Of a DNA stretch of 64,000 nt, positions 20,366 to 59,780 are shown in pieces. The DNA is from an uncultured Thermoleophilia bacterium. GTDB taxonomy: Bacteria > Actinomycetota > Thermoleophilia > UBA2241. Made by a program: the position numbers and the translations under genes. The stretch's first letter is position 1, and every line of letters begins with the position of its first letter. Where the stretch lies: contig CAVQSP010000014.1 in the NCBI GenBank assembly GCA_963715985.1, forward strand, positions 480,001 through 544,000, read 5' to 3'. The notes under the pieces were generated by a model. It saw nothing but the letters and a program-made list of their open reading frames with translations. It did not search any database and was not told the origin of the DNA.

Positions 20366-22081
20366 GTGACCGACCTCCTCAACGTCGACCTGACGCACGG
20401 CAGCGTGGCGAGGGAACCCCTCGGCGTGGACCTTGAACCCCTCGGCGGCCACGGCCTCACGTCGGCCATCGTCGCCAGAGACGTCCCTGCGGACGCGGAC
20501 CCCCTTGGGCCCGGCAACGTCCTCGCGATCGCGGCCGGCATCTTCGCCGGCACGTCCGTGCCCAACGGCGGCAGGCTGTCCGTCGGCGGCAAGAGCCCGC
20601 TCACGGGCGGCATCAAGGAGGCCAACTCGGGCGGCTCGGCGGCGCGCGCGCTCGCGGGCCTGGGCCTGCGCGGCATCAGGATCGCCGGCCGCGCCGACGG
20701 TCTCAGCGTGCTCGAGGTGAACGCGGACGGCGGTAGGCTTGTGCCGGCGCCCGAGCTCGCGGGGCTCGGCTCCTATGCGACCGTCGACATGCTGCGCGAG
20801 AAGTACGGCGACAAGGTCTCGTTCATCTGCATCGGCCCCGCCGGTGAGCTGCAGATGAAGGCGGCGGCCGTCATCGTCACAACGGCCGACCACTACCTGC
20901 GCGCGGCTGCCCGTGGCGGCCTCGGCGCGGTGATGGGTTCCAAGAACCTCAAGGCCATCGTCATCGACGGCGCCGGCGGCGCCGGCGTCGCGGTCGCCGA
21001 CCCCGCGGCACTCAAAGACGCCTCAAGGGCGCTCAGCAAGGGCATCCTCTCCCACCCGGCCATGGCCGCCCTGGAGGCGCTGGGCTCGGCTTTCCTCGTC
21101 AACCTCACCCAGTCCATGGGCTGCCTCGCCACCAGGAACTTCTCCGCCGGGCAGTACGAGAACGCCCAGCAGATCACGGGCGAGCACATGGTCGAGATCA
21201 TGAACGCGCGGCCCAACGGGCGATGCCGAAGCACAGCTGCATGAGGGGCTGCATCATCAACTGCTCGCAGGTGTACACCGACGAGGACGGCGAGGTGATC
21301 ACCTCCGGCCTCGAGTTCGAGACCATCGGCCTGGTCGGCTCCAACTGCGAGCATCGACGACCTCGACGAGATCGCCCGCATCGACCGCATGTGCGACGAC
21401 CTCGGGCTGGACACCATGGACGTGGGCGCCGCGATGGGCGTCGCCATGGAGGGGGGTCTCCTGGACTGGGGCGACGGCCCCGCCGCGCTCGAGATGCTGG
21501 GCAAGCTGACGGCCGGCGACGAGAACGCCAGGCTGCTGGCGAACGGCTGCGCCGCTACGGGCAAAGCTCTGGGCGTGGCACGCATCCCCGCCGTCAAGGG
21601 TCAAGCCTTCGCCGCCTACGACCCGCGCGTGCTCAAGGGCACGGGCTCCACCTACGCCACGAGCCCGCAGGGCGCCGACCACACCGCCGGTAACGCGCTG
21701 CCGAGCCCGGCGAATCCCATGTACGACCCGGCGTCGGCGGAGGGCCAGGCGCAGATCTCCGAGTTCCTGCAGTGCTACTTCGCCGCCATCGACTCGCTGG
21801 GCATGTGCCTGTTCGCCACGCTGCCGGCGCTCGACATCCCGGAGCTGCAGGGCCTCATGGTGGCCGCCGCCGCCGCCGTCACCGGCGAGCAACTGCCGGA
21901 CGACTACCTCATCAAGATGGGCGACCGCATCGTCCGCGAGGAGCGCGACTTCAATCGCCGCGCCGGTTTCACTGCGGCCGACGACCGGCTGCCGGCGTTC
22001 TGTGTGGAGGAGCCGGTGCTGCCGTCGGGCAACCGCTACGACGTGGCGGAGTCCGACCTCGACGCGATGTTCGCGAGCTGA
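20366..22081 (+). CDS. aor: tungsten-type aldehyde:ferredoxin oxidoreductase (frameshifts near 21225 and 21350)
   Basis: KSPLTGGIKEANSGG, IGPAGE, AARGGLGAVMGSKNLKA, CMRGCIINC, EFET, CDDLGLDTM, YDPR, GADH. Confidence 0.88.
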
Positions 22082-22104
22082 CCCCGGCAGACGAGGGGAG
22101 GGAC

Positions 22105-22947
22105 ATGGCGGCAGAGACACGATCCGGGGATGGGAAGAAGCGGCCGGCTGCGAACGGGGCGGACGCCGGCGAGGCCTTCATCGTTCGCGCCCTGGCCAAG
22201 GGCCTCGCCATGCTCGGCCTCTTCGACGCGGTGCATCGCGAGTGGACGCTCGACGAGATGGTGGCCGAGCTCAAGCTGCCCCGCATGACCGGCTATCGCA
22301 TGGCGCGCACGCTCCAGAGCGCCGGGTACCTGGTCACCGACGCGGCCAGCGGGAGGTACCGGCTGGGACCCGCCATGCTCGCCGCGACCTACCTGTCCGA
22401 AGGCTACGCCGAGCTGGTCGCCATCGCACGGCCGTACCTCGAGTCGCTGGTGGAGCAGACCGGGGAATCGGCCACGCTGGCCGTGGATGTGGACGGCGTG
22501 GCCGTGTGCGTGGACATGGTCGACTCGTCACGGCCGCACAAGCGGGAGGTCGCCGTGGGCCGCGTCATCGGCGACACCGCCAACGCGCACGGCAAGATGT
22601 TCGTCGCCTCCCGGCCGGACGACGAGCGCGCGCGCATCATCGCCATGCCGCACGCGCGGCTCACGCCGCGGACCATCACGGACCCGGCCGAGCTCGAGGC
22701 CGAGCTGCGGCGAGCCAGGGAGGAGGGCGTCGCCTTCGACCTTGAGGAGCGCAACCTCGGGACCTGCGCCGTGGCCGCCCCCGTGCGCGACCAGATGGGG
22801 CGCGTGATCGGCAGCGTGGGCCTCGTCGTGCCCACCGGGCGCTTCGGGCTGGAGGAGCAGGCGGCGTGTGTGGACGCGGTCAAGGCCACCGCCGCCGCAC
22901 TCTCGGGCTTCCTGGGCTATGCGGAGGCCGAACCCTCGGCCGAGTAG
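22105..22947 (+). CDS. IclR-family transcriptional regulator (paralog 1)
   Basis: RALAKGL..L HTH, YRLGP, TGESATL, AHGK, AVAAPVRD. Confidence 0.9.
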   Translation: MAAETRSGDGKKRPAANGADAGEAFIVRALAKGLAMLGLFDAVHREWTLDEMVAELKLPRMTGYRMARTLQSAGYLVTDAASGRYRLGPAMLAATYLSEGYAELVAIARPYLESLVEQTGESATLAVDVDGVAVCVDMVDSSRPHKREVAVGRVIGDTANAHGKMFVASRPDDERARIIAMPHARLTPRTITDPAELEAELRRAREEGVAFDLEERNLGTCAVAAPVRDQMGRVIGSVGLVVPTGRFGLEEQAACVDAVKATAAALSGFLGYAEAEPSAE

Positions 22948-22971
22948 CGCTCGCCTCATCACGAGCACTAC

Positions 22972-22998
22972 CTGCGCCCGGCCCTTCGCCGGGCGCAG
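22972..22998. terminator. GC hairpin after IclR-1
   Basis: CTGCGCCCGGC-ccttc-GCCGGGCGCAG; no U-tract. Confidence 0.45.
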
Positions 22999-23017
22999 TG
23001 CCGTGCGGGGCCGGCAC

Positions 23018-23075
23018 TTGAATCGCGCTGCCCGATACCTTACGGTAGGATGCGTAAAGTGATATGTGAATACCA
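23018..23075 (+). promoter_or_regulatory. promoter plus TGATAT-N4-ATACCA operator for the 23.1-32.2 kb operon
   Basis: TTGAAT(23018)-17 nt-TACGGT(23041); palindrome at 23060-23075. Confidence 0.65.
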
Positions 23076-23095
23076 TTGATGAGAGGGCGTGCCGC

Positions 23096-24073
23096 GTGGA
23101 CCTGGAGAGCGTAGGCAAGATCGCCGTCGTCGGGGCCGGGACGATGGGACCGGGCCTGGCGCAGGTGTTCGCCGGCGCGGGGCACCCCGTGACGCTGTAC
23201 TCGCGCTCCGGCGAGACCCTGGAGAAGGCCCTCAGCATCACGGCCGTCAATCTGGAGACCTTCGTCCGCAACGGCTTGCTGCAGGCTGAGGACGTCGCGC
23301 CGATCCTCGCGCGCATCACGCCGACCCGGTCGCTCGCCGAGGCCGGCCGGGACGCGAGCCTGGTCATCGAGACCATCGCCGAGAACGTGGAGGCCAAACG
23401 GGCCGCCTTCGCCGAGCTCGACGATGCGTGTCCCTCGGACGCCGTGTTCACGAGCAACACCTCCTACCTGGACATCTACGGGCTCGTCCCGGAGCGGCGC
23501 CTGCCCGCCACGGTCATCGCGCACTGGTTCGCGCCGCCGCAGATCATCCCGCTCGTAGAGGTGGTCAAGGGCCCGCACACGAGCCAGGACACGGTGGACC
23601 TCGTGGTCGCGCTGCTCAAGCGGGTCGACAGGGTGCCCGTGGTGATGGAGAAGTTCGTGCCCGGCTTCTGCGTCAACCGCCTGCTGCGCATCATCGGCCG
23701 CGAGGTCTTCTTCCTCCTCGACAACGGCTACATGACCGCCGAGCAGCTCGACCTGGCGGTCAAGGCCAGCATCGTGCCGCGGGCCATGGTCCTGGGGTTC
23801 GTGCAGCGCTACGACTTCACCGGGCTCGACCTGAGCCTGAACAACCTCAAGAACACCGCGTTCCTCGAGCCGCCGCTGGACAACTCTCCGCGCAGTCTCG
23901 TTGAGCGCGTGGAGAAGGGCGAGTTGGGCGCCAAGTCCGGCAGGGGGTTCTTCGACTACAGCGACCGCGACCCGGGGGACGTGCTCAGAGAGCGCGACGA
24001 CGCACTGCTCCGGGTGTTCGGCTCCGTCAGAGACCTCATGGACGAGCACATCGGAGACGTGAGAACACCATGA
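23096..24073 (+). CDS. 3-hydroxyacyl(-CoA) dehydrogenase family protein
   Basis: GAGTMG, IETIAENVEAK, SNTS, AHWFAPP, PGFCVNR, GAKSGRGFFDY. Confidence 0.88.
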   Translation: MDLESVGKIAVVGAGTMGPGLAQVFAGAGHPVTLYSRSGETLEKALSITAVNLETFVRNGLLQAEDVAPILARITPTRSLAEAGRDASLVIETIAENVEAKRAAFAELDDACPSDAVFTSNTSYLDIYGLVPERRLPATVIAHWFAPPQIIPLVEVVKGPHTSQDTVDLVVALLKRVDRVPVVMEKFVPGFCVNRLLRIIGREVFFLLDNGYMTAEQLDLAVKASIVPRAMVLGFVQRYDFTGLDLSLNNLKNTAFLEPPLDNSPRSLVERVEKGELGAKSGRGFFDYSDRDPGDVLRERDDALLRVFGSVRDLMDEHIGDVRTP

Positions 24074-24924
24074 AGCTTCCACACGGCAAGGTCATCATCA
24101 CGGCGTCGCTCAACGGCGCCTTCGTGACCAAGGACATGAACCCCAGCGTGCCCGAACAGCCGGACGAGATCGCCCAGGCGGCCTTGGAGTGCTACAACGC
24201 CGGCGCGGCCATCGTGCACATCCACGCCCGCGACGAAGAGGGCAGGCCTCACGGCACGAAGGAGAAGTTCGAGGAGATCCTCGCCGCCGTCAGAGGCAAG
24301 ACCCGCGACGTCGTCGTGCAGTTCTCCACCGGCGGCGGCACCAACCTCACGATCGAGGAGCGCGTGTCGTGCCTCGACGCCGACCCCGAGATGGCCTCAC
24401 TCAACATGGGTACGCTCATGCGCCAGACGGGTCCCAACGCCGGCGAGCCGTTCGCCAATCTCACCAAAGACATCGAGGCCTGGGCGGCCAAGATGCAGGA
24501 GATGGAGATCAAGCCCGAGATGGAGTGCTACTCGCAGAGCATGTACCGGGACGTAAGCAACCTCATCAGCAAGGGGCTCATCGAGAAGCCGTACTACGTG
24601 AACTTCGTGCTCGGGATGATGCACCAGGGCGCCATCGAAGCGACGCCGGAGACGCTGGTCTCGATGTACCAGTTCCTGCCGCAGGACTGCTACTTCAACA
24701 CCACCGCCACCGGCGCCGCGCAGCTGCCGCTCACCACCATGGCCATGATCATGGGCGGGTCGGCGCGCGTGGGCCTGGAGGACAACATCTACTTCCGCAG
24801 GGGTGAGCTCGTGAAGAGCAACGCCCAGTTGGTCGAACGCACCGTACGCATCGCCAGGGAGCTCAACCTGCAGCCCGCGACGCCGGACGAGGCCAGGGCC
24901 ATCCTCGGCGTCGTCAAGAAATGA
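24070..24924 (+). CDS. beta-keto acid cleavage enzyme (BKACE / Kce, DUF849)
   Basis: VIITASLNG, AGAAIVHIHARD, STGG, PEMASLN, KPEME, RVGLEDN, SNAQLV, ATPDEAR. Confidence 0.9.
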   Translation: MKLPHGKVIITASLNGAFVTKDMNPSVPEQPDEIAQAALECYNAGAAIVHIHARDEEGRPHGTKEKFEEILAAVRGKTRDVVVQFSTGGGTNLTIEERVSCLDADPEMASLNMGTLMRQTGPNAGEPFANLTKDIEAWAAKMQEMEIKPEMECYSQSMYRDVSNLISKGLIEKPYYVNFVLGMMHQGAIEATPETLVSMYQFLPQDCYFNTTATGAAQLPLTTMAMIMGGSARVGLEDNIYFRRGELVKSNAQLVERTVRIARELNLQPATPDEARAILGVVKK

Positions 24925-24947
24925 CGCACACGAAAGGGACACAGCCG

Positions 24948-25718
24948 ATGGATGACCTCTTCTCACTCAAGGGCAAGAACGCCGTCGTCCTCGGGGCCGG
25001 CGGCATGGGCACGGCGATCGCTGCCGGCCTGCTCCGCTACGGCGCCAGGCTGGAGCTCGCCGACGGCAGCGCGGCCGCGCTCGAACGTTCCACGGCGCAG
25101 CTCGCCAAAGCAGGCCATACGTCGGTGGGCACGCACGAGGTGGACGCCACCGACGAGAGCAGCGTGCAGGGTCTCGTCGACGCGGCCGTGGCCGGCATGG
25201 GCAGAGTGGACATCCTCGTCAACGCCCTCGGCTACAACTTCAAGGCGCACGCCACCGAGTTCCCCATGGACGAGTGGGACCGGCTCTTCAGCGTCAACGT
25301 CAAGGCCGTGATGCTGGCCTGCAAGCTGTTCGGCGCGCACATGATCGAGCAGGGCGGCGGCACCATCATCAACCTCTCCTCGGTGCGCGACGATCGCGGC
25401 GCGCTCGGAGGCAACGCCGGCTACTGCGCCACCAAGGGCGCCGTGAAGATGATCACCAAGCAGCTGGGCGTCGAGCTGGCGCCGTACAACGTCAAAGTGA
25501 ACGCGCTCGGGCCGATCATCACCGTGACCCCCATGACCGCCGAGCGCATCAAGCAGGACTCGTCGCGGTACGAGCGCATGCTGCTCAACGTGCCGATGGG
25601 GCGCATGGCCAACGTGGAGGACCTGGTGGGCCCGGCCGTGTTCCTGGCCTCGGCCGCCTCGGACTTCATCACCGGCACCGTCCTGTACGTGGACGGCGGC
25701 ATGATGGCCTATGCGTGA
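24948..25718 (+). CDS. short-chain dehydrogenase/reductase (gluconate-5-DH / phloroglucinol-reductase-like candidate)
   Basis: LGAGGMG, DILVN, NLSSVR, YCATKG, PMGR, FITG..LYVDGG; substrate not established. Confidence 0.85.
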   Translation: MDDLFSLKGKNAVVLGAGGMGTAIAAGLLRYGARLELADGSAAALERSTAQLAKAGHTSVGTHEVDATDESSVQGLVDAAVAGMGRVDILVNALGYNFKAHATEFPMDEWDRLFSVNVKAVMLACKLFGAHMIEQGGGTIINLSSVRDDRGALGGNAGYCATKGAVKMITKQLGVELAPYNVKVNALGPIITVTPMTAERIKQDSSRYERMLLNVPMGRMANVEDLVGPAVFLASAASDFITGTVLYVDGGMMAYA

Positions 25719-26940
25719 AAAGTAGCAGGGGGCGGAAGGCGCACCTGCCGATGCGTCGTCATCGTCTCTGCGGTCCGCACCGCTCTCGGGCCGCGTCGGC
25801 GGGGCGCTGAAGGACGTGCAGCCCGAGGAGCTCGGGCGAGTCGTCCTCTCGGCCGCGGTGGAGCGCGCAGGCGTGGAGCCGGCCGAGGTGGACGAAGTCA
25901 TCATCGGCCAGACCAAGCAGAGCGCGGACGCCGCCAACCTGGCGCGCGTGGCCGCGCTCAAGGCCGGCTTCCCCGTCGAGGTGCCGGCCTACACGGTGAT
26001 GCGCCAGTGCGGGTCCGGGATGCAGGCGGTGAGCAACGCCGTGCAGGCCATCTGGTGCGGCGAGGCCGAGATCGTGGTGGCCGGTGGCGTGGAGAGCATG
26101 AGCCTCGCGCCGTACTACCTGCGCGGCGCCCGCTTCGGCTTCACCTCGGGCAACGCCGTGGTCGTCGACTCCAACACCGAGAGCCAGCCGCGCTCGCAGC
26201 CGTACGAAGTGTACGGTGACCTCACCATGGGGCTCACGGCCGAGAACCTGGCCGAGAAGTACCACATCGCGCGCGAGGAGCAGGACGGGTTCGCGCTGCG
26301 CAGCCAGGAGCGCGCCTTCGCGGCCATCGAGAGCGGTCGCTTCGCGGACGAGATCGTGCCCGTGGAGGTCCCGGCGCGCAAGGGCCCCCCGCAGGTGTTC
26401 GACACCGACGAGCACCCGCGCCGCACCAGTCTGGAGGCCCTCGCCAAGCTCGGGCCGGTGTTCAAGGACGGCGGCAGCGTCACCGCCGGCAACTCCTCCG
26501 GCCGCAACGACGGCGGCGCCTGCCTCGTGCTGATGTCCGCGGAGACCGCGCGGGAGAGGGGCGTCGAGCCGCTCGCCACCGTGCGCTCGCAGGCCGTGGC
26601 CGCCGTGGACCCGCGCATCATGGGCATCGGGCCGGCCCCGGCAACGCGCAAGGCGTTGCAGAAGGCCGGCCTGGACCTCGCCGACATCGGCCTCATCGAG
26701 CTCAACGAGGCCTTCGCGGCCCAGAGCCTGGCCGTCGTCAAGGAGCTGGGCCTGGACCAGGACATCGTCAACGTCAACGGCGGCGCCATCGCCCTGGGGC
26801 ACCCCCTGGGCTGCTCCGGCGCCCGCATCCTCACCACCCTGCTCCACGAGATGCGCAAGCGAGGTACCCGCTACGGGCTCGCAAGCATCTGCATCGCCGG
26901 CGGCCAGGGCATGGCCACGATCGTGGAGGCTGCCGGCTAG
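25715..26940 (+). CDS. acetyl-CoA C-acetyltransferase (thiolase); N-terminus frameshifted
   Basis: VVIVSAVRT (shifted), QCGSGMQA, GGVESMS, VTAGNSS, ELNEAF, NGGAIALGHPLG, CIAGGQG; exact start uncertain. Confidence 0.9.
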
Positions 26941-26985
26941 CGCGCGCCCAGCGCCGCCGACTCCACCGTCCGCAAGGAGAGAGCT

Positions 26986-27792
26986 ATGACAGGAATCGTC
27001 AAAGACCCCTACTCCGGGCTCGAGCTCATCGAGCTCAGCCACGTGTGGGGGCACGGGGTCCCGTCCGAGCCGGGCCAGCTTGACGTCCGCATGCAGCGCG
27101 CCGTGAAGCACGCCCAGCACGGCGTGCTCGCCTGGCGCGTCATCACCAGCCTGCACACGGGCACCCACATGAACGCCCCCATCCACATGGTCCAGCGCGG
27201 CGACGATCTGGCCGCCGTCTCCCCGGACCGCCTCTTCGGCAACGCCGCCGTGCTCGACATCCCCAAGCAGAGCTGGGAGGTCATCACGGCCGCCGACCTC
27301 GAGGCTGCCACTCCGGCCGTGCAGGACGGCGACATCGTCGTCATCGTCACCGGCTGGCACCACAAGTACTCCGACGGCCTCGAGTACTTCGGGGAGGCGC
27401 CCGGCCTGACCAAGGACGCCGCCGAGTGGCTCGTCAAGAAGGACCCGAAGTTCGTGGCCGTCGACACGCCGTTCATCGACGTCCCGCTCGCCACCTCGAT
27501 GGGCCCGCATCGCGGCGGTCCGCAGATGAAGCGCCTCGCCCTCGAGTACGCGGCGGCGACCGGCAGGGACGCCAAGAAGGACTTCCCGGAGTGGTTCCCC
27601 GCGCACAAGACCCTCGCCGCCGCGGGCATCCCGACGGTCGAGCAGGTCGGCGGCGACGTGGACCTCGTCAAGGGCAAGCGCGCCACCATCGCCGCGACCC
27701 CCTGGAAGTTCGAGCACGGGGACGCCTGTCCGGTCCGCATGATCGCCATGCTCGACCCGTCCGGCAAGCTGCGCATCGACGCCGGCAACTGA
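26986..27792 (+). CDS. cyclase-family (kynurenine formamidase/isatin hydrolase-like) metallohydrolase A
   Basis: ELSH, HTGTHMNAPIH, GDIVVIVTGW, PGL, VDTP, AHK..E, DACPVR. Confidence 0.82.
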   Translation: MTGIVKDPYSGLELIELSHVWGHGVPSEPGQLDVRMQRAVKHAQHGVLAWRVITSLHTGTHMNAPIHMVQRGDDLAAVSPDRLFGNAAVLDIPKQSWEVITAADLEAATPAVQDGDIVVIVTGWHHKYSDGLEYFGEAPGLTKDAAEWLVKKDPKFVAVDTPFIDVPLATSMGPHRGGPQMKRLALEYAAATGRDAKKDFPEWFPAHKTLAAAGIPTVEQVGGDVDLVKGKRATIAATPWKFEHGDACPVRMIAMLDPSGKLRIDAGN

Positions 27793-27821
27793 CGACCAGC
27801 GGACGAGAAGGGACACCGGAC

Positions 27822-28603
27822 ATGACTGTCAAGGTCTACAACCTGAGCCACACGTTCACGCAGTTCATCCCGGAGTGGCCGTCCACTCCGAGCGTGAACG
27901 TCAAGGTGAGCAAGTTCCATGCCAAGGACGGCATCTACGAGGTGGAGTGGGAAGGCATCATGCACCGCTGCACGCACATGGACGCGCCGCTCCACGTCAC
28001 CGAGAACACGCCGAGCATCGCCGACTACCCGCTCTGGCGGCTGGTCGGCACCGGCGTCTGCGTCGACATCCCCAAGGGCAAGTGGGGAGTCATCACCCCT
28101 GAGGACCTCGAGAGGCGACGCCCAAGATCGAAGAGGGCGACATCGTCATGATCAACACGGGCTTCCATCGCCTGTGGGGCGACACCGACGAGTACTTCGC
28201 CTACGGCTGCGGCATGGGGGCCGAGGGCGCCCAGTGGCTCGTCGACAAGAAGGTCAAGATGGTGGGCTACGGTCACCAGGCCAACGACCATCCCATCGCC
28301 ACCAAGCTCGTCGACCACGGCCTCGGCCCGACACAGCCGCACCTCATCGACGAGTACAAGGAGTTCACCGGCCGCGACGCCAAGGCGGACTTCCCGAGCT
28401 GGGAGCCGGCGCACAAGATCCTCATGTGCCAGGGCGGCATCCCCGGCATCGAGAACGTGGGCGGCGACCTCGACGAGGTCACCGGCAAGCGCTGCACGTT
28501 CATGGCTCTGCCGTGGCGCTGGCCGGGCGGCGACGGTTGCATGGTCCGCATTCTCGCGGTCATCGACCCGGACCAGACCTTCCGCTTCGAGACGGGGCAG
28601 TGA
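27822..28603 (+). CDS. cyclase-family metallohydrolase B (frameshift near 28115)
   Basis: NLSH, HRCTHMDAPLH, GDIVMINTGF, AHKIL..GIENVGGD, GDGCMVR. Confidence 0.82.
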
Positions 28604-28604
28604 C

Positions 28605-29816
28605 ATGAGCGACATCCTCGAGGGCGTCAAGATCATCGAGATGGGCCACGTGGTGGCGGTCCCCGCGGCCTCCTCGATGATGGGCGACTGCGGCGCCGAG
28701 GTCATCAAGATCGAGCCGCTCACCGGCGACCAGTCGCGCACGTTCCGCGGCACCGACATCAACCCCGGCTTCTACCTGCACAACCGCAGCAAGAAGAGCA
28801 TCGCCATCGACCTGCGCCAGCAGGCCGGCAAGGAGATCGTCTACAAGATGGTCGGCGACCACGACGTCTTCCTGACCAACTACCAGGCCGGCTCCCTGGG
28901 GCGGCTTGGGCTCGACTACGAGACGCTGTGCGGCTACAAGCCGGACCTCATCTACGGCCTCGTCTCGGCCTACGGCACCGTGGGCCCCGACAAGGACATG
29001 GCCGGGTACGACTTCGCCGCCGGCTGGGCACGGTCCGGCATCCAGGACATGCTCAGCGTGCCCGGCACGCCGCCGCCGGCCTCCCGGCCGGGCATCATCG
29101 ACCGCGTCTCGTCCATGCAGATCTTCGGCGGCATGTGCGCGGCGCTGTACCACCGCGAGCACACCGGCGAGGGCCAGAAGGTCGAGTTCAACCTCTACCA
29201 CACCGGCGTGTGGATGGTCGGCGCCGACATCATGGACGCGCTCATGGGGCTGCCGCTGCGGCGCGTGGACCCGGCCAAGTCGGACAACCCGTTCTACGAC
29301 GTCTACCAGTGCAAGGACGGCCGCTGGCTGCAGCTCACCGCCGCCGACCGCTACGCCAAGGCGCACGACCCGGCCGGGGCCAAGTTCTGGCAGTCGTTCT
29401 GCCGCGCCCTCGACCGCCCCGACCTCGCCGAGGATCCGCGCTTCGCCACCACGGACATGCGCCAGCAGCACCGCGACGTCCTGGCGCCGATGCTCAACGA
29501 GGCCTTCCTCGGCCACACCTACGCCGAGTGGGAGGAGCGTCTGCGCGCCGAGAACCTCATGTACGGCCCCATCCTCTCGCCGGAGCAGGTCATCGAGGAC
29601 CCGCAGGCGCTGGCCAACGACTTCTTCACCGAGGTCGACCAGCCCGGCGTGGGTACCTTCCGCACGATCAACTCGCCGTACAAGTTCGTGCAGAACCCCG
29701 CTTACGTCCATTCGCTGACGCCGGGGCTCGGGGAGCAGACCGACGAGATCCTCAGCGCTCTCGGCTACCGCGATGGAGACGTCGCCCAGCTACGCGAGGC
29801 CAAGGTAATCCTGTAG
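28605..29816 (+). CDS. family III CoA-transferase (CaiB/BaiF)
   Basis: LEGVKIIE, GAEVIKIEP, NRSKKSIAIDL, GLDYE, SAYG..GP, GYD, catalytic Asp in GIIDR, PGLGEQT. Confidence 0.9.
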   Translation: MSDILEGVKIIEMGHVVAVPAASSMMGDCGAEVIKIEPLTGDQSRTFRGTDINPGFYLHNRSKKSIAIDLRQQAGKEIVYKMVGDHDVFLTNYQAGSLGRLGLDYETLCGYKPDLIYGLVSAYGTVGPDKDMAGYDFAAGWARSGIQDMLSVPGTPPPASRPGIIDRVSSMQIFGGMCAALYHREHTGEGQKVEFNLYHTGVWMVGADIMDALMGLPLRRVDPAKSDNPFYDVYQCKDGRWLQLTAADRYAKAHDPAGAKFWQSFCRALDRPDLAEDPRFATTDMRQQHRDVLAPMLNEAFLGHTYAEWEERLRAENLMYGPILSPEQVIEDPQALANDFFTEVDQPGVGTFRTINSPYKFVQNPAYVHSLTPGLGEQTDEILSALGYRDGDVAQLREAKVIL

Positions 29817-29821
29817 GAGGG

Positions 29822-30262
29822 ATGAAGATGACGGAAGCACCGAGGGTGCTGCTCGGCGACGGGTTGTTCACCCCCACGGAGCCCGGAGTAGACGGGCAGA
29901 TCATCGCCACGCACTGCAAGAGCTGCGGCGACTACTTCTTCCCGCGCAGCTTCACCTGCCACAATCCGGAGTGTGTGGAGCGGGACGTCGAGGACGTGGC
30001 GCTCAGCGGCACCGGCGTCGTCGACACCTACTCCGACATGAGCTACCCGCCGCCGCCGCCCTACGTGGTGAAGAAGGAGGACTGGGTGCCGACCCCGGTC
30101 GTCTCGGTCAGGATGCCCGAGGGCATCCACATCATCGGCATGATGGATGACTGCACGCCTGAGGACGTCTCCATCGGCATGGAGGTCCAGACCGTCATCC
30201 GCGTGCTGTACACCAACAAGGACGGCGAAGAGCTCGTCGGCTGGAAGTTCAGGAGGGTGTGA
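29822..30262 (+). CDS. Zn-ribbon/OB-fold (DUF35) thiolase partner
   Basis: CKSCG..FFP...CHNPEC, LSGTG.V.TY, IGMEV, WKFR; overlaps the following thiolase-like gene. Confidence 0.85.
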   Translation: MKMTEAPRVLLGDGLFTPTEPGVDGQIIATHCKSCGDYFFPRSFTCHNPECVERDVEDVALSGTGVVDTYSDMSYPPPPPYVVKKEDWVPTPVVSVRMPEGIHIIGMMDDCTPEDVSIGMEVQTVIRVLYTNKDGEELVGWKFRRV

Positions 30263-31452
30263 CCATGGACGACATCGCCATCATCGGGGTCGGCCTGCAC
30301 CCGTGGGGCAAGTTCCCCGAGAAGTTCTGGACCAACATGGCGTCGGACGCCATCAACGACGCGCTCAAGGACGCCGGTATCACCTGGAAGGACATCCAGA
30401 TCGTCGTCTCCGGCTCCCAGAACTGGGGCGGCCGCAAGGGCATCTACGCCGGCTCGTACATCGATGAGGTCATGGGCTATACCGGCGTGCCCACCATGAA
30501 CATCAACAACGCCTGCGCCACCGGCGGCACCTGCATCGCCGTGGCGGCCGCCATGGTCGCCTCCGGACAGGCGGACATCGTGCTCGCCGTGGCAGCCGAC
30601 AAGTCGGCCAAGGGCTTCTTCCCCTTCCTGCCGCCGTATCACGAGGAGCCCGTGCCGGCCGACGACACCATGCGCTGGCTGATGGGCATGCCGAACCCGA
30701 TCTACTGGGCGCTCGAGTGCCGCAAGAAGATGGACAAGTACGGCATCACCGACGAGCACCTCGCGATGGTCAAGGTGGCGACGAGCAAGCACGGGTCCAT
30801 CAACCCGGCGGCGCGCTACAAGAAGGAGTTCACGCTCGACGAGGTCCTCGCGTCGCCCATGGTGTGCACCCCGCTGCGCCTCTTCGAGATCTGCGCCACC
30901 AGCGACGGCGCCGGCGCCGTGATCCTCTGCAACGCCAAGAAGGCCAAGCAGTTCACGTCCAAGCCGGTCCACATCGTCGGCTCGGGCCTGGGCAGCCCGC
31001 TCTACGGCGACCCCACCACGCGCATCCCGGTGCTCGGCTTCCAGCCCAAGGAGGGCGTGCCGATCATCAGCGAGAGCTGGGTCGCCGCCAAAGCGGCGTT
31101 CGCCGACGCCGGCATGGGGCCGGAGGACATCGACTTCGTCGAGGTCCCGGACAACAGCTCGTGGCACTACTTCCAGTACCTCGAGACCATGGGCTTCTTC
31201 GAGGAGGGCACCGCTCACCTGGCGCTCGAGCGTGGCGAGACGATGATCGGCGGCAAGCTGCCCGTCTGCCCCAGCGGCGGCTTCTCCAGCTTCGGCGAGG
31301 CCACCATGGCGCAGGGGTTCGCGCAGGTGTACGAGATGGTGCTGCAGCTGCGCGGCCAGTGCGGCGCGCGGCAGGTGGAGGGCGCCAAGGTCGGCATGTC
31401 GGAGGTGTACGGCATGGCCGGCAACAACGCCGCCCTCATCCTGAAGAACTAG
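30259..31452 (+). CDS. SCP2/Ltp-type thiolase-superfamily protein
   Basis: IAIIGVGLHPWGK, NNACATG, NPAARY, PLRLFEICATSDGAGA, PVCPSGG, QLRGQCGARQV. Confidence 0.85.
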   Translation: MTMDDIAIIGVGLHPWGKFPEKFWTNMASDAINDALKDAGITWKDIQIVVSGSQNWGGRKGIYAGSYIDEVMGYTGVPTMNINNACATGGTCIAVAAAMVASGQADIVLAVAADKSAKGFFPFLPPYHEEPVPADDTMRWLMGMPNPIYWALECRKKMDKYGITDEHLAMVKVATSKHGSINPAARYKKEFTLDEVLASPMVCTPLRLFEICATSDGAGAVILCNAKKAKQFTSKPVHIVGSGLGSPLYGDPTTRIPVLGFQPKEGVPIISESWVAAKAAFADAGMGPEDIDFVEVPDNSSWHYFQYLETMGFFEEGTAHLALERGETMIGGKLPVCPSGGFSSFGEATMAQGFAQVYEMVLQLRGQCGARQVEGAKVGMSEVYGMAGNNAALILKN

Positions 31453-31462
31453 CGGAGGGTCC

Positions 31463-32249
31463 ATGGAGGCCGAGTACGCGACCATCATCTACGAGAAGGC
31501 CGGCAACGCCGGCCTGGATCACGCTCAACCGGCCGGAGGTGCTGAACGCGCAGAGCGACGAGTTGCGCGCGGAAGTCACGCAGGCGCTGGAGCGCGCCAG
31601 CCTCGACGACGAGGTGTACGTCGTCGTCCTCACGGGCGCCGGCGACAAGGCGTTCAGCGCCGGCGCCGACATCAGCCAGTTCCCCTCGCGGTACCCCGTG
31701 GACGTCATCACGGCCAAGGCGCGCCGCCGCCCCTACGAGACCATCCGCGAGATGCCCAAGCCGGTCATCGCTGCCGTCAACGGCCTCGCTCTCGGCGGCG
31801 GCTGCGAGCTGGTGCTCGCCTGCGACATCGTCATCGCCGCCGAGACGGCCAAGTTCGGCCAGCCGGAGATCAGGGTCGGCGTCATCCCCGGGTGCGGCGG
31901 CACGCAGGTGCTGCCCCGCCTCATGGGGGAGAAGCGCGCCAAGGAGCTCATCTTCACCGGGCGCATGATGGAGGCGGACGAGGCGCTCAGCTACGGTATC
32001 GTCAACAAGGTCGTGCCGCCGGAGGAGCTCAGGGAGGCCACGGAGAAGTTCGTGAGCGACCTCCTGCGCAACAGCCCGGCCATCCTCAAGATGGCCAAGA
32101 TCGCCGTCAACAAGTCGCTGGAGACGCCGTTGTCGGTGGGCATGAGCTATGAGCGCGACCTCTTCGCGCTATGCTTCGGCACGGAGGACCAGAAGGAAGG
32201 CGCCACAGCGTTCCTCGAGAAGAGGAAGCCCACCTACTCGGGCAGGTAG
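31463..32249 (+). CDS. enoyl-CoA hydratase/crotonase (frameshift near 31512)
   Basis: ITLNRPE.LNA, AFSAGADI, KPVIAAVNGLALGGGCE, FGQPE, EG..AFLEKRKP. Confidence 0.92.
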
Positions 32250-32304
32250 GTCCTGGCGGGCGAGGGCGACCCGGCGTGTGAAGGGGAGTCGGAGGAGGAC
32301 TGTG

Positions 32305-33177
32305 ATGGCGAAGGACGATGTGGCCGGGTCGCGGCGCCGGGGAGGCCAGGCAGGGGGCGCCCGGCGCAGCGGCGAGGGCGGTGACTCGAGCATCGTGCGC
32401 ACGCTGGCCTCGGGCATGGCTCTGCTGGGTCTGTTCGACGCCGAGCATCGCCAGTGGAGTCTGGACGAGATGGTGGCGCGCCTCGGGGTGTCGCGCATGA
32501 CCGCCTACCGCATCGCGCGCACCTTCCAGAGCACCGGCCACCTCGTCAGCGATCCGGCGGCCGGCGGGTACCGTCTCGGGCCGGCCATGCTGGCGGGCAT
32601 CTACCTGGCCGAGGGCTTCGCCCAGCTCGTCGAGGTCTCGCGGCCGTATCTCGAGTCGCTCGTGGATCAGACCGGGGAGCTGGCCGCCCTGGCGGTCGAG
32701 CTCGACGGCATGGCCGTCTGCGCCGATCTCGTCGCGTCCGCCCGGCCCTTCGTCCTCGAGATCGCCGTAGGGCGTGTGATCGGCGACACCGCCAACGCGC
32801 ACGGCAAGATGTTCGCGGCCATGAAGCCGGATGCCGAGCGTGCGCTCATCGCCGCACAGCCGCACAGGCGACTCACGGCAGCGACCATCACGGAGCCCGC
32901 CGCGCTCGCCGCCGAGCTGGACAAGATCAGGGCGGAAGGGCTCGCCTGGGACTTCGAAGAGCACGACCTCGGCACCTGCGCGGTGGTCGCCCCGGTGCGC
33001 GACCAGACGGGAGCCGTCATCGCCACGCTCGGCGTCGTGGTCCCGACCGGTCGCTTCGGCGTCGAGGCGCGACAGGCCTGCGCGGACGCGGTGCGGGCTA
33101 CGGCCGCCGCGCTCTCGGAGTTCTACGGGTACGCACCGCGGGGCGGGCGGAGCAGGCCGGAACGCGACAACGCGTAG
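32305..33177 (+). CDS. IclR-family transcriptional regulator (paralog 2)
   Basis: HTH with WSLDEMV, YRLGPAML, GRVIGDTANAHGKMF, APVRDQ. Confidence 0.9.
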   Translation: MAKDDVAGSRRRGGQAGGARRSGEGGDSSIVRTLASGMALLGLFDAEHRQWSLDEMVARLGVSRMTAYRIARTFQSTGHLVSDPAAGGYRLGPAMLAGIYLAEGFAQLVEVSRPYLESLVDQTGELAALAVELDGMAVCADLVASARPFVLEIAVGRVIGDTANAHGKMFAAMKPDAERALIAAQPHRRLTAATITEPAALAAELDKIRAEGLAWDFEEHDLGTCAVVAPVRDQTGAVIATLGVVVPTGRFGVEARQACADAVRATAAALSEFYGYAPRGGRSRPERDNA

Positions 33178-33182
33178 TCTGC

Positions 33183-33210
33183 TTGTCAACATACGATATT
33201 CCAGTATCAT
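33183..33210 (+). promoter_or_regulatory. promoter overlapped by CGATAT-N4-GTATCA operator
   Basis: TTGTCA(33183)-16 nt-TATCAT(33205); palindrome at 33194-33209. Confidence 0.6.
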
Positions 33211-33270
33211 AAGCGCATTCCGCCCGGATGACCGGCGGTCGTCGAGGATTTCACACAGCAAGGGGACGCC

Positions 33271-34656: not shown

Positions 34657-34682
34657 GGCCGCTCCGCGCTTCCAGTCTCATT

Positions 34683-34720
34683 CCGGCGGCAGGGCCCCAC
34701 GCTCGTGGCCCTGCCGCCGG
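34683..34720. repeat. 14-bp inverted repeat between aminotransferase and moaF
   Basis: CCGGCGGCAGGGCC-N10-GGCCCTGCCGCCGG. Confidence 0.6.
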
Positions 34721-34758
34721 ATCACGTTGTCCCCCCAACACCCCTCAGGAGGGTCGTG

Positions 34759-47584: not shown

Positions 47585-47804
47585 GCTCGGGTCACCGTCC
47601 GTGTGGGTTGGATGCAGTCGGAGTCTACCGGAACGGGCGGTCCGTTGCACGGTACGGAGCGCAGCCCCAGCCTCGGGAGAGCCGCCCGCGCGGGCCCGTG
47701 TCAGGGCTGTGACCGCGGCCGCGAAGAGGCCGGCCCGCGGCGCCTGAGACGGCGGCGCCGCGGGCCGGCCGGGGGTCAGCCGTGACGATCGCGCAGGCCG
47801 GCGC

Positions 47805-50012: not shown

Positions 50013-50046
50013 TGTCTCCCTTTTCCGACAGGCCCGGAGGCCGGCC

Positions 50047-51812: not shown

Positions 51813-51876
51813 CGGCGTTCTCCTGTTCGCCGGCGGACTGGTCCCGCGTCAGGGGGCGCGACGGCGACGCGGTCTC

Positions 51877-52693: not shown

Positions 52694-52695
52694 GG

Positions 52696-56339: not shown

Positions 56340-56418
56340 GGTGTCTGGTCGTTCGGCGTCGCCCGGCGGGGGTCATGGCCGCGGCAGCGCTCCACGGGAG
56401 CCGGTGGGAGGTCGCCCA

Positions 56419-58947
56419 ATGAGTGAACAGGTCTTCACCAATCTGACGAACTGCGGGCCGGTGTCCGTGTACGTCAGGGACGGGGTGGTCACACGGATCC
56501 TGCCGCTCGTGGCGGACGAGGCCGACTTCCGGCCCTGGACGATCGAGGCGGGGGGCAAGCAGTACTCCCCGCCGAAGAAGTTCAACCTGGCGCCGATGGT
56601 GCACGCCGAGCGTCGGCGCCTCTATTCGGACGAGCGCATCAAGTACCCGATGAAGCGCGTCGACTTCGACCCGAACGGCGAGCGTAACCCCCAGAACCGC
56701 GGCAAGTCGGCGTACGAGCGCATCTCCTGGGACGAGGCGCTCGACATCGTCTCGGGGGAGATCGCGCGCGTGAAGAACGAGTACGGCAGCTCGGCCATCA
56801 GCGGCATGACCTCGTCGCATCACAACTGGGGCATCGTCGGCTACAAGATGGGCCCGTTCATGCGCTTCATGAACTGCCTCGAGGCCACCCCGGTCTTCGA
56901 CAACCCGGACAGCTGGGAGGGGTGGCACTGGGGCGCCACGCACACCTACGGCTTCTACTGGCGCCTTGGCATGCCCGAGCCGTTCGACAATCTGCAGGAC
57001 GTGCTCAAGAACTCCGAGATGATCGTCCTCTGGTCGAACGACCCCGATACCACGCGCGGCACCTACTCGGGCCAGGAGTCGGCCATCTGGCGCACGTGGC
57101 TCAAGGAGAAGGGCGTCCCCACAGTCTTCATCGATCCCTTCCACAACTACACGAACGCGCTCTTCGACGAGGGCAAGTGGATCGCCCCGCGTATGGGCAC
57201 CGACACGGCGCTGGCGATGGCGATCGCCTACGTGTGGATCACCGAGGACACGTACGACAAGGAGTACGTCGCCGACCGCACCATCGGCTTCGACGAGTTC
57301 AAGCCGTACGTGCTCGGCGAGACGGACGGCGTGCCCAAGACGCCGGAGTGGGCGGCCGAGGAGTCCGGCGTCGAGGCGCGCGTCATCCGCACGCTGGCGC
57401 GGGAGTGGGCCGGCAAGCGCACCGCCCTCGCGGCCGGCGCGCGGGGCGGCGAGGGCAGCGCGTGCCGGACCGCCTACGGCACCGAGTGGGCGCGGATGAT
57501 GGTGCTCCTCCAGGCCATGCAGGGTCTGGGCAAGCCGGGCATCACCATCGGCGGGATCTCGATGGGCGCTCCGGCGGACTTCGAGACCTGGTTCCCGGCC
57601 TACGCCGAGCCGCAGGGGCGCATGTCCCACTCGACGAAGGCGGCCGACTACATCCCGAAGAACTCCACGAAGCAGAGGCTGTGGCGGCTCACGGTGCCGG
57701 ACGCCATCCTGGATCCTCCCGTGGAGTGGGACGGCGCCGGCTTCTGCGGGCAGTCGCTCGAGCAGCAGTTCGAGCACTTCGTGTATCCGGCCGAGGGCTG
57801 CTCCGAGATCAAGCTCTGGTACCGCTACGGCGGCTCCTTCATGGGCACCATGTCCGACACCACCAAGTGGGTGCGCATGTACCAGAGCCCCAAGCTCGAG
57901 TTCGTCGTCAACCAGGACGTGTGGTTCAACAGCGAGACGCGTATGGCCGACGTCATCTTGCCGGCCTGCAGCAACTTCGAGCGCGACGACCTCGGCGAGT
58001 TCGCCGCCTGCGGCGGCTACACCACGAACTCGCACTCGGGCAACAACTACCGCGTCATCGTGCGTGAGCAGAAGTGCATCGAGCCCCTCTGGGAGTCCAA
58101 GTCCGACTACCAGATCCTCGCTGCCCTTTCCGAGCGGCTCGGCATCTACGACGAGTTCACGGACGGCGGCAAGACCGAGATCGACTGGGCCAAGGCGTTC
58201 TACGACTGCTCCGACCTGGCCAAGGTGCTCGACTGGGAGACCTTCGACAAGAAGGGCTACCACATCATCAACGCCCCCGAGGACTACGAGCCCAAGCCGT
58301 GCCTGCGCTGGTTCGCGGAGGGCCGCGCCTGCGACACGCCCGACACCGGCAACCCGAAGCGCGGCACCGACAAGGCGCACGAGCTCGGCACCTACAGCGG
58401 CAAGATCGAGTTCTCGTCCGAGAGCCTCAAGGCTCACTTCCCGGACGACCAGGAGCGGCCTGTCTCTCCCCGGTACATCGAGAGCTGGGAGGGCCATCAC
58501 ACGACCGAGCTCATCGAGAAGTACCCGCTGCAGCTCATGTCGCCGCATCCGCGCTTCTCGTTCCACTGCCACTACGACAAGCACACCGACTGGCTCGACG
58601 ACATCCCCGTCCACCGCATCAAGAAGGACGGCTACGCGTGGTGGCCGGTGCGCATGAGCCCGGCGGACGCGGACGCGCGCGGCATCCGCAACGGCGACAT
58701 CGTGCGCCTGTACAACGACCGCGCGTCCGTGCTCTGCTGCGCGGTCGTCACCGAGCGGATCCGCCCGGGCATCGTGCACAGCTACGCGTCGTCGGCCAAG
58801 TACGACCCGCTCGAGCCCGGCAAGGCCGACTCGGTCGACAAGGGCGGGTGCGTGAACATGCTGACGCCGTCGCGGATGGTCAGCCGGCACGCCCCGGGCA
58901 TGACGCCCAACTCGTGTCTCATCGACATCGCGAAGTGGGAGGGCTGA
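56419..58947 (+). CDS. transhydroxylase-like Mo-bisPGD large subunit, paralog C (intact ORF)
   Basis: GPVSVYVRDG, SSHHNWGIVGY, DNPDSWEGWHWG, ACRTAYGTEWAR, FPAYAEP, AACGGY, SPHPRFSFH. Confidence 0.9.
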   Translation: MSEQVFTNLTNCGPVSVYVRDGVVTRILPLVADEADFRPWTIEAGGKQYSPPKKFNLAPMVHAERRRLYSDERIKYPMKRVDFDPNGERNPQNRGKSAYERISWDEALDIVSGEIARVKNEYGSSAISGMTSSHHNWGIVGYKMGPFMRFMNCLEATPVFDNPDSWEGWHWGATHTYGFYWRLGMPEPFDNLQDVLKNSEMIVLWSNDPDTTRGTYSGQESAIWRTWLKEKGVPTVFIDPFHNYTNALFDEGKWIAPRMGTDTALAMAIAYVWITEDTYDKEYVADRTIGFDEFKPYVLGETDGVPKTPEWAAEESGVEARVIRTLAREWAGKRTALAAGARGGEGSACRTAYGTEWARMMVLLQAMQGLGKPGITIGGISMGAPADFETWFPAYAEPQGRMSHSTKAADYIPKNSTKQRLWRLTVPDAILDPPVEWDGAGFCGQSLEQQFEHFVYPAEGCSEIKLWYRYGGSFMGTMSDTTKWVRMYQSPKLEFVVNQDVWFNSETRMADVILPACSNFERDDLGEFAACGGYTTNSHSGNNYRVIVREQKCIEPLWESKSDYQILAALSERLGIYDEFTDGGKTEIDWAKAFYDCSDLAKVLDWETFDKKGYHIINAPEDYEPKPCLRWFAEGRACDTPDTGNPKRGTDKAHELGTYSGKIEFSSESLKAHFPDDQERPVSPRYIESWEGHHTTELIEKYPLQLMSPHPRFSFHCHYDKHTDWLDDIPVHRIKKDGYAWWPVRMSPADADARGIRNGDIVRLYNDRASVLCCAVVTERIRPGIVHSYASSAKYDPLEPGKADSVDKGGCVNMLTPSRMVSRHAPGMTPNSCLIDIAKWEG

Positions 58948-58951
58948 TCAG

Positions 58952-59780
58952 ATGCGCCTCGGCATGCTCATAGACGTCACCAGGTGCAGCGGCTGCCACA
59001 ACTGCTTCCTGGCCTGTCGTGACGAACACTACGGCAACGAGTACCCCGGCTACTCCGCGGCCCAGCCCCTGAACGGCCAGTTCTGGATGCAGGTCAGGGA
59101 GGTCGAGGGCGGCAAGTACCCGCGGCCCCGGCTCAACTACATCGCCATCCCCTGCCAGCACTGCCGGAACGCGCCGTGCCTCGACGCCGCCAAGGACGGC
59201 GCGGTGTATCGCCGCGAGGACGGGATCGTGATGATCGATCCCGAGAAGGCGAAGGGGCAGGACCAGATCGTGGCCTCCTGCCCCTACCGCGTCATCTACT
59301 GGAACGCCGAGCTGGAACTGCCGCAGAAGTGCGGCCTCTGCGCCCAGCGTCTCGACAGCCGGCGACAGGCAGCCGCGTTGCGTGGAGTCGTGCCCGACGG
59401 GTGCGATGGCGTACGGCGACCTCGACGATCCCGGGTCCGAGATCGCCAAGCGCCTCGAGGAAGTCTCGTCCGAGGTCCTGCATCCCGAGTACGGGACGGA
59501 TCCTCTGGTGACCTACGCCGGCCTCCCGGGCCGCATGGTCGCCGGCGAGGTCGTGCTCGAGGGCAGCGACGTCTGCGCCGAGGGCGTCAAGGTCACGCTC
59601 CAGGGCGACGGGGTCTCCCTGGAGACGGCGTCGAGGACGTTCGGCGACTTCGCCTTCGAGCGCCTGCCGCAGAGCAAGGCGTTCACGGTCACCGTCGCCG
59701 CCGACGGCTTCACGCCGCAGGTGTTCGACGTGAAGACGCACACCGACGTCGATCTCGGCGAGGTCGTGCTGACGAAGTAA
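58952..59780 (+). CDS. transhydroxylase small subunit-like (PgtS/BthL) Fe-S protein (frameshift near 59362)
   Basis: CSGCHNCFLACRDEH, CQHCRNAPC, AKGQDQIVASCPY (one cluster motif degenerate, as recalled for BthL), KCGLC, FGDF.FE domain, DLGEV.L. Confidence 0.85.

Follow-up and report, generated by a model that had tools for sequence, protein, structure and literature searches.

The window analyzed here is a stretch of 64,000 nucleotides (G+C content ~70%) from contig CAVQSP010000014.1 of an uncultured Thermoleophilia bacterium, a soil or wetland actinobacterium. It contains a row of ten genes on the + strand (positions 23066-32249), in which neighbors overlap by 4 nt or are separated by gaps of up to ~45 nt. 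The subject of this study is the pathway encoded by this row (referred to as the operon), above all two adjacent cyclase-family genes, CYC1 and CYC2. An earlier sequence-only reading of the stretch had described six co-located, co-transcribed genes, ending at 28603, as an operon for phloroglucinol-type ring degradation. All six were recovered as + strand genes backed by Pfam matches, but the row was found to extend 3.6 kb beyond the proposed end (Table 1).

Table 1. Features of the window, in order of position
Feature	Position	Strand	Evidence and remarks
Aldehyde:ferredoxin oxidoreductase (AFOR)	20366-22081		Upstream of the operon
IclR-family regulator	21772..22947	+	Pfam IclR_C, HTH_IclR; upstream of the operon; start codon uncertain
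3-Hydroxyacyl dehydrogenase, TfD-like	23066..24073	+	Pfam 3HCDH_N, 3HCDH
BKACE, Kce-like subgroup	24070..24924	+	Pfam PF05853, 316 bits, E 3e-94
SDR oxidoreductase, candidate ring reductase, predicted NADH-type	24921..25718	+	Pfam adh_short_C2
Acetyl-CoA C-acetyltransferase-type thiolase	~25751..26940	+	Pfam Thiolase_N/C; TIGR01930, 461 bits
CYC1, cyclase-family subunit	26986..27792	+	Pfam PF04199; Asn in the metal motif
CYC2, cyclase-family subunit	27822..28603	+	Pfam PF04199, both halves; metal motif intact
Family III CoA-transferase	28605..29816	+	Pfam CoA_transf_3, 329 bits
DUF35 / OB-fold partner of SCPx-type thiolase	29822..30262	+	Translation; homologous cluster has PF01796
SCPx-type (lipid-transfer-like) thiolase	30259..31452	+	Pfam Thiolase_C_1; NF004715 396 bits, cut-off of 424 not reached
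Enoyl-CoA hydratase	31463..32249	+	Pfam ECH_1
Class III aminotransferase and MoaF	33232-35577		Downstream of the operon
AhtL-like gene	47566-44998	-	
Region of both minus-strand AhtL-like genes, with a molybdenum (Mo) oxidoreductase	44998-55249	-	Mo oxidoreductase with Fe4S4 domain
AhtL-like gene	55249-52816	-	With BthL-like protein, ferredoxin, and NrfD anchor
W_AhtL, pyrogallol-hydroxytransferase-like Mo large subunit	56416..58947	+	PF21423, Molybdopterin, Molydop_binding
BthL-like Fe-S small subunit	58931..59771	+	Frame break 59356/59361; two pieces in different frames by tblastn with the L059 and L048 small subunits
Fusion gene with pyruvate:ferredoxin oxidoreductase-like N-terminal domains and an ADP-forming acyl-CoA synthetase-like part	61408-63999		Exceeds the window end

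Judged by its tight spacing on one strand, the row is probably co-transcribed. No + strand terminator-like sites were found at 22700-33300, and a promoter and terminator scan of the operon region gave no signal above chance. The gene order was shared with eight related Thermoleophilia loci (L001, L003, L005-L007, L010, L012, and L013), and since it recurs there, the arrangement is not due to chance. The upstream position of the IclR gene was also kept in Thermoleophilia relatives.

The anaerobic phloroglucinol pathway of Clostridium scatologenes consists of PGR, DPGC, TfD, TAL, and a thiolase, according to the parts of Zhou et al. (mBio 2023, PMC10470551) drawn on here and below. In that account, PGR is an NADPH-dependent SDR that reduces phloroglucinol and carries a TR(S/N) NADPH-binding motif. 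DPGC, a Mn-dependent cyclase-family enzyme of 312 aa with the pocket residues Trp20 and Tyr22, opens dihydrophloroglucinol. TfD belongs to the 3HCDH family, keeps the Ser/His/Asn residues without the CoA-contacting Lys56 and Asn221, and makes triacetate, which is cleaved by TAL, a Kce-like BKACE with Trp16 in place of Kce Glu14, before the thiolase acts. The end products from phloroglucinol are acetoacetate and acetoacetyl-CoA. The window likewise has the four enzyme families and a thiolase in one row on one strand (23066-28603), and adds the CoA-transferase, DUF35/SCPx, and enoyl-CoA hydratase genes. The roles assigned in the sequence-only reading match these four families, and both the families present and their diagnostic residues lend good support to the proposed chemistry; the scheme itself, however, had already been published (PMC10470551).

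The two cyclases had been read as ring-opening hydrolases, which agrees with their homology to the DPGC family, but they form one conserved pair rather than two hydrolases. Homologs of CYC1 (69-97% identity), obtained by searching one genome per species, gave 80 loci spanning Thermoleophilia, other Actinomycetota, Acidobacteriota, Thermodesulfobacteriota, and Bacillota, and CYC2 directly followed CYC1 in all 80. The two proteins are 42% identical to each other and 28-34% identical to canonical DPGC. In the phylogenetic tree, each formed its own clade (support 97/99 and 100/99), and the two clades were joined at 84/81 and set apart from the single DPGC types at 92/92. The cyclase-family metal motif is HxG[T/A]HxDxPxH, the Asp of which is a metal ligand in isatin hydrolase (IH) and KynB, and members of the family are swapped homodimers, each chain contributing residues to the pocket of the other (PMC6117287, drawn on in part). 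In the window, CYC2 (HRCTHMDAPLH) has all the metal ligands, with Cys at the Gly position, and in CYC1 (HTGTHMNAPIH) the Asp ligand is replaced by Asn. This asymmetry was general: HTGTHMNAP.H was found in 77 of the 80 CYC1 locus copies and in 117/120 close database homologs, and HR[CG]THMDAP.H in all 78 CYC2 copies. CYC2 has a Trp aligned with DPGC Trp20 and a Ser at Tyr22; CYC1 retains neither of the two DPGC residues.

All 17 homologs of 505-549 aa (P0121-P0137) were fusions of the two proteins, in which the Asn-type domain came first and the Asp-type domain second, with linkers of varying length. Two of them, P0121 and P0122, showed further decay of the motif in the first domain, where the first and last His were lost. 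Three other long homologs were a thiolase-CYC1 run-through, a MoaA-CYC2 chimera, and a protein without the motifs. An 'unnamed protein product' of 678 aa filed under the ostracod Cyprideis torosa (P0139) has radical-SAM/MoaA domains joined to a CYC2-like domain; it is probably either of bacterial origin, within a eukaryote assembly, or the result of reading through adjacent genes.

When modeled as a complex, CYC1 and CYC2 scored 0.94 in three runs (best control 0.00); of 80 solved complexes 58 attained this mark, as did 2 of 110 mismatched pairs. Contact agreement between the runs was at least 95%, and the partner predicted local distance difference test (pLDDT) value at least 92. The predicted interface includes the segment just before the metal motif (CYC1 45-57, CYC2 36-48). 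On the strength of the constant pairing, the separate clades, the motif asymmetry, the fusions, and the complex model, the pair is therefore read as very probably heteromeric, its two sites being unequal, and from its motif CYC2 is likely the catalytic partner.

The closest solved relatives of CYC1 were metal-dependent hydrolases, kynurenine formamidases, and isatin hydrolases. Isatin hydrolase and bacterial kynurenine formamidase (PMC6117287) share PF04199 with the window pair, which also retains the His base and the Glu/Gln position. They act on amide substrates and form homodimers, whereas a C-C bond is the likely target of CYC1/CYC2, predicted to be a heterodimer of paralogs with Asn for Asp in one subunit. 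The DPGC of C. scatologenes differs as well, being a single protein in place of two diverged paralogs, and its Tyr22 is not retained in the window. The literature searched, with the 2023 PDF supplement excluded, yielded only Zhou 2023, CAMPER, and surveys, and contained no biochemistry of the paired form; a search on btdhL and resorcinol hydroxylase likewise gave nothing of use. As far as these searches reach, it has not been described that a large share of the 'DPGC homologs' belong to an obligate pair in which one metal motif is degenerate, or that this pair, accompanied by an SDR, dehydrogenase, BKACE, and Mo enzyme clade of its own, usually occurs in genomes that have a canonical set as well.

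The source genome (4.35 Mb, 88.8% complete, 7.3% contaminated) contained seven BKACE (PF05853) matches and five PF04199 matches in four genes. A second, canonical phloroglucinol-type cluster was found on another contig (C13:483000-501000, L097), with an AhtL-like Mo enzyme, an IclR regulator, a fragmentary and a full SDR, a 3HCDH-family dehydrogenase, a single DPGC, a cupin, a BKACE, and an ABC transporter. This C13 cluster is the truly canonical version of the pathway in the genome. Its cyclase-family protein has Trp20 and Tyr22 at exactly those positions and, compared by eye only, resembles the CsDPGC peptides of the proteomics table in PMC10470551; its BKACE has Val at the Kce Glu position. 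Between the window and C13 the identity was 36% for the dehydrogenase, 39% for BKACE, 40% for the SDR, 30% for CYC1 and DPGC, and 50% for the Mo subunit. Because the genome has this cluster, the window operon is probably not the only phloroglucinol route of the organism, and may not serve phloroglucinol in the first place.

Both systems were also found together in other genomes. In G003, the canonical cluster has the order cupin-SDR-3HCDH-DPGC (71%)-thiolase-BKACE(Trp), and the pair locus has AFOR, a dehydrogenase (60%), BKACE (74%), an SDR, and a thiolase. In addition to the pair, G002 (Neomoorella) has cupin-SDR-3HCDH-single cyclase-BKACE(Trp), with a C13-type Mo enzyme (73%) nearby. Among 301 Thermoleophilia genomes, a CYC2 ortholog (at least 72% identity) was present in 47 and a canonical DPGC (at least 64% identity) in 54; 44 had both, three the pair only, ten the canonical type only, and 244 neither, so that 44 of the 47 pair holders also had canonical DPGC, although these are kin genomes, mostly of one family (f4), and the counts are descriptive only. 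Of 301 genomes from the phylum of Desulfopila, three had the pair, with a canonical enzyme in G340, a canonical fragment at a contig end in G477, and none in G001. Outside Thermoleophilia, four of the eight pair holders had a single-type enzyme. Both cyclase types are listed for Flavonifractor plautii in the table of Zhou et al. (PMC10470551).

Genes within 8 kb on either side of the pair were counted in the 80 loci, some of which are shorter. An SDR (one homologous cluster, at least 35% identity) was found in 33 loci, a BthL-like small subunit in 23, and an AhtL-like large subunit in 21, followed by thiolase (17), BKACE, 3HCDH, DUF35, and SCPx thiolase (16 each), enoyl-CoA hydratase (14), and the two parts of an ADP-forming acyl-CoA synthetase (13 and 10). 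The order in a Desulfosarcinaceae locus (TRAP transporter, AhtL, BthL, SDR, CYC1, CYC2, acyl-CoA synthetase, enoyl-CoA hydratase, DUF35, SCPx) suggests a CoA-ester lower route. Such a route is said to have been described for Pelobacter acidigallici by Brune and Schink in 1992. In Desulfopila aestuarii (L098, G001 C48:166000-186000), the pair lies among MoaA, MoeA, two AhtL-like genes, and a sigma-54 activator, with no SDR or 3HCDH gene within 20 kb of it; the same locus has a row of FAA-hydrolase, SnoaL-like, LigB-like, and BKACE genes, the last with Arg at the Kce Glu position.

In the sequence-only reading, the operon had been taken as the lower pathway for transhydroxylases encoded at 45-60 kb. 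The link to Mo enzymes held: W_AhtL was alignable over its full length with the Pelobacter large subunit 4v4c (879 bits, 837 residues, chain residues 7-869), and AhtL proteins 62-79% identical to it adjoin the pair in 12 of the 80 loci, in other phyla. The alignment conserved His144, Asp174, Ser175, and Tyr404, which we take to be active-site residues. With its first domain of the AhtL type, this alignment along the whole chain, and the Fe-S small subunit that follows it, W_AhtL is a putative pyrogallol hydroxytransferase like the P. acidigallici AthL/BthL (4v4c); the small subunit is frame-broken, and its C-terminal piece has CarboxypepD_reg. The earlier reading did not hold as it stood, since the canonical cluster, on another contig, adjoins a Mo enzyme (852 bits over 682 residues, in a reading frame that looks cut short) that scores better per residue against the Pelobacter enzyme than W_AhtL. 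W_AhtL is one of at least four paralogs in the source genome, and three AhtL-like genes lie in the window (Table 1). The NrfD anchor that accompanies one of the minus-strand copies would fit a quinone-linked hydroxylase better than a transhydroxylase. The AhtL-like gene in the minus-strand region with the Mo oxidoreductase is 59% identical to the C13 copy.

Diagnostic residues were compared for the remaining enzymes. In the phmmer alignment to C. butyricum HBD (4kue), the window dehydrogenase kept Ser117, His138, and Asn188, with Leu for Lys56 and Val with a 3-residue insertion for Asn221. This pattern matches that of C. scatologenes TfD, and the enzyme probably acts on a free 3-hydroxy acid; its earlier assignment as the source of triacetate agrees with both family and residues. 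The best solved relative of the window BKACE was Kce (186 bits), and the alignment to Kce 2y7d placed Phe18 at the Glu position. The enzyme scored below all four NCBIfam equivalog cut-offs, with the Kce model NF052387 on top (298 bits, cut-off 382), followed by the 3,5-dioxohexanoate type NF053538 (225/430) and the 3-oxoadipate type (201/350). A Trp-type BKACE of a canonical cluster gave a near-identical profile (306/238/229), and the canonical-cluster BKACEs of G002 and G003 have Trp at this position. The window BKACE thus resembles CsTAL in being Kce-like without the glutamate, but has Phe and not Trp; with Kce of lysine fermentation it shares PF05853, but has Phe in place of the amino-binding Glu. 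The sequence-only reading had called for classification of the active site, and the outcome was that grouping with the lysine or carnitine types does not apply. Lysine and carnitine readings were rejected on the NCBIfam cut-offs and the absent Glu.

The SDR had been proposed as the ring reductase, and its family fits PGR, but the cofactor motif does not: in unaligned strings compared by position, the window SDR has 'LELADGS', with an NADH-type Asp ending beta-2, in place of the TR(S/N) NADPH motif, and canonical-cluster SDRs have 'TGRN' or 'TGRT'. Among pair-linked SDRs the motif varies, with Asp in Thermoleophilia and Acidobacteriaceae and 'SSRN' in Desulfobacterales. Against PDB 5g4k/5g4l, the window SDR scored 127 bits and the C13 SDR 146 bits; these entries are presumably the Clostridium phloroglucinol reductase, an assumption that is not relied on, as a full-text search yielded unrelated papers. 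NCBIfam contains no models for PGR, DPGC, TfD, or TAL; the canonical-cluster proteins matched only generic SDR, 3HCDH, and Kce-like models, and neither of the window cyclases had an NCBIfam match.

With about even confidence, the operon is read as a second, parallel version of the anaerobic phloroglucinol-type chemistry, with a heteromeric hydrolase and a related ring rather than phloroglucinol as the substrate. This ring would be delivered by the operon's own transhydroxylase-like Mo enzyme. The SDR would reduce a polyphenol ring with a 1,3-dihydroxy pattern, and the CYC1/CYC2 metal hydrolase would open the resulting cyclic 1,3-dione by retro-Claisen C-C hydrolysis, with the intact metal site supplied by CYC2 and CYC1 (Asn) probably completing the swapped-dimer pocket instead of catalyzing. 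The TfD-like dehydrogenase would then oxidize the free 3-hydroxy acid to a 3-keto acid, BKACE would transfer this onto acetyl-CoA, and the thiolase would give acetyl-CoA. The downstream CoA-transferase, DUF35/SCPx thiolase, and enoyl-CoA hydratase may offer a CoA-ester branch. A broader proposal is advanced more tentatively, as somewhat short of an even prospect: the obligate catalytic/degenerate heterodimer with its own SDR and Mo enzyme would constitute a second, undescribed anaerobic ring-cleavage route for a polyphenol other than phloroglucinol, parallel to the canonical one in anaerobes from soil and sediment that belong to several phyla. The ring could be, for example, a dione derived from hydroxyhydroquinone, tetrahydroxybenzene, or a substituted phloroglucinol.

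The alternative closest to this reading is that the operon encodes the plain phloroglucinol pathway, in which the SDR is a phloroglucinol reductase, the pair is a dihydrophloroglucinol hydrolase, and triacetate, BKACE, and thiolase follow; it would serve the transhydroxylase products of the window and be redundant with, or regulated differently from, the C13 cluster. This is a serious possibility, though the lesser one. It is in keeping with the presence of all four families, the TfD-like residues of the dehydrogenase, an aromatic residue (Phe) in BKACE where CsTAL has Trp, together with the near-canonical NCBIfam profile, the retained Trp20 equivalent in CYC2, and pair-only genomes with transhydroxylase-like genes alongside, which argue for a pair that is sufficient by itself. 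The pair types are, moreover, ranked among the DPGC homologs by Zhou et al., who give a CYC2-type protein of Desulfopila aestuarii as its DPGC (PMC10470551). It is opposed by the canonical cluster in the same genome, the two systems in 44/47 pair holders, paralog sets that share only 30-40% identity, an SDR without the NADPH motif reported for PGRs, Ser at Tyr22 in CYC2, and a BKACE pocket residue unlike the Trp of canonical clusters. Deeply diverged, full paralog sets side by side in genomes of 2-4 Mb argue for different substrates, and from the canonical single-DPGC cluster and the co-occurrence, a related ring is preferred to plain phloroglucinol. The substrate is accordingly graded as somewhat more probably a related polyphenol-derived 1,3-dione, less probably phloroglucinol itself, and improbably something else; the exact ring cannot be told from sequence. 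Besides the ranking by Zhou et al., several other points weigh against a parallel route for a related ring. The activities and substrates of all operon proteins are predictions from sequence. The pass of the complex model, for which there was no homodimer control, may reflect likeness to solved structures because the family forms swapped homodimers, and CYC1 may be active since Asn can bind metal. The co-occurrence counts come from genomes that are not independent. No single-type DPGC was found with the queries used in G001, G004, G005, and G006; these genomes may rely on the pair as their sole dihydrophloroglucinol hydrolase, in line with plain phloroglucinol. The operon also has two frame breaks in this assembly.

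Two further explanations dispense with a working ring-cleavage route. The pair could be an amidohydrolase, similar to kynurenine formamidase or isatin hydrolase, in an operon that degrades a beta-keto or amino acid, e.g., by a lysine- or carnitine-type BKACE route, with no aromatic ring involved. The solved relatives nearest to CYC1 and the lysine Kce model as the top NCBIfam match of BKACE agree with this, but BKACE stays below that cut-off and is without the Glu that binds the 5-amino group, the carnitine dehydrogenase models scored far under their cut-offs (76/414 and 103/592), and no lysine-fermentation genes were seen in the row by Pfam. As the tree also placed the pair with the single DPGC types, away from a KynB-like protein, and the pair lies beside transhydroxylase-like genes in several phyla, an amidohydrolase is considered highly improbable. 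The operon could instead be decaying, with real breaks in thiolase and CYC2 and a non-functional pathway in this organism. In a DNA alignment with five relatives, all intact at this site, the CYC2 gene was split by a 1-nt deletion near 28115, and the 5' codons of the thiolase gene were broken near 25790 by at least one indel, leaving the N-terminal peptide in a different frame, unlike in relatives. Overall, at least eight breaks were located in seven otherwise well-conserved window genes (AFOR, thiolase, CYC2, three Mo enzymes, and the BthL-like subunit; 20366-22081, 25790, 28115, 45813-45818, 48618-48686, 49651-49680, 54894-54896, and 59356-59361), a pattern that looks like the indel noise of long-read metagenome assembly and is consistent with an error-prone assembly. 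In public metagenomes, the extra base was present at 28112-28114 in every contig covering 28115, i.e., in three contigs of X2 (at all depth), one of X3, and one of X7; X1 has no cover there. The exact strain of the window was absent from the runs (word share at most 0.68), and as none of the run contigs matches the window's own version, the error reading is unproven. With no further degeneration in the flanking sequence, the thiolase and CYC2 breaks look like assembly errors, and decay is regarded as very unlikely.

In peat, sediments, and guts, the mineralization of flavonoids and tannins is channeled through the anaerobic breakdown of phloroglucinol. PGR and transhydroxylase genes now serve as its markers in surveys (PMC12203004, drawn on in part). 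If the paired cyclases and their partners serve a different ring, such surveys lump two pathways as one, and one anaerobic polyphenol route is still undescribed; an enzyme and degenerate-paralog heterodimer would also be a new architecture for the cyclase hydrolase family. If the pair is just another dihydrophloroglucinol hydrolase, it is an ordinary new member of the published pathway.

Outside the row, the places of the AFOR gene beside the operon and of the class III aminotransferase and MoaF genes downstream were kept in Thermoleophilia relatives, and in a Bacillota genome (L069) the pair cluster likewise has an AFOR gene ahead of it. At the far end of the window, an ADP-forming acyl-CoA synthetase-like gene is fused to pyruvate:ferredoxin oxidoreductase-like N-terminal domains and continues past the window end.

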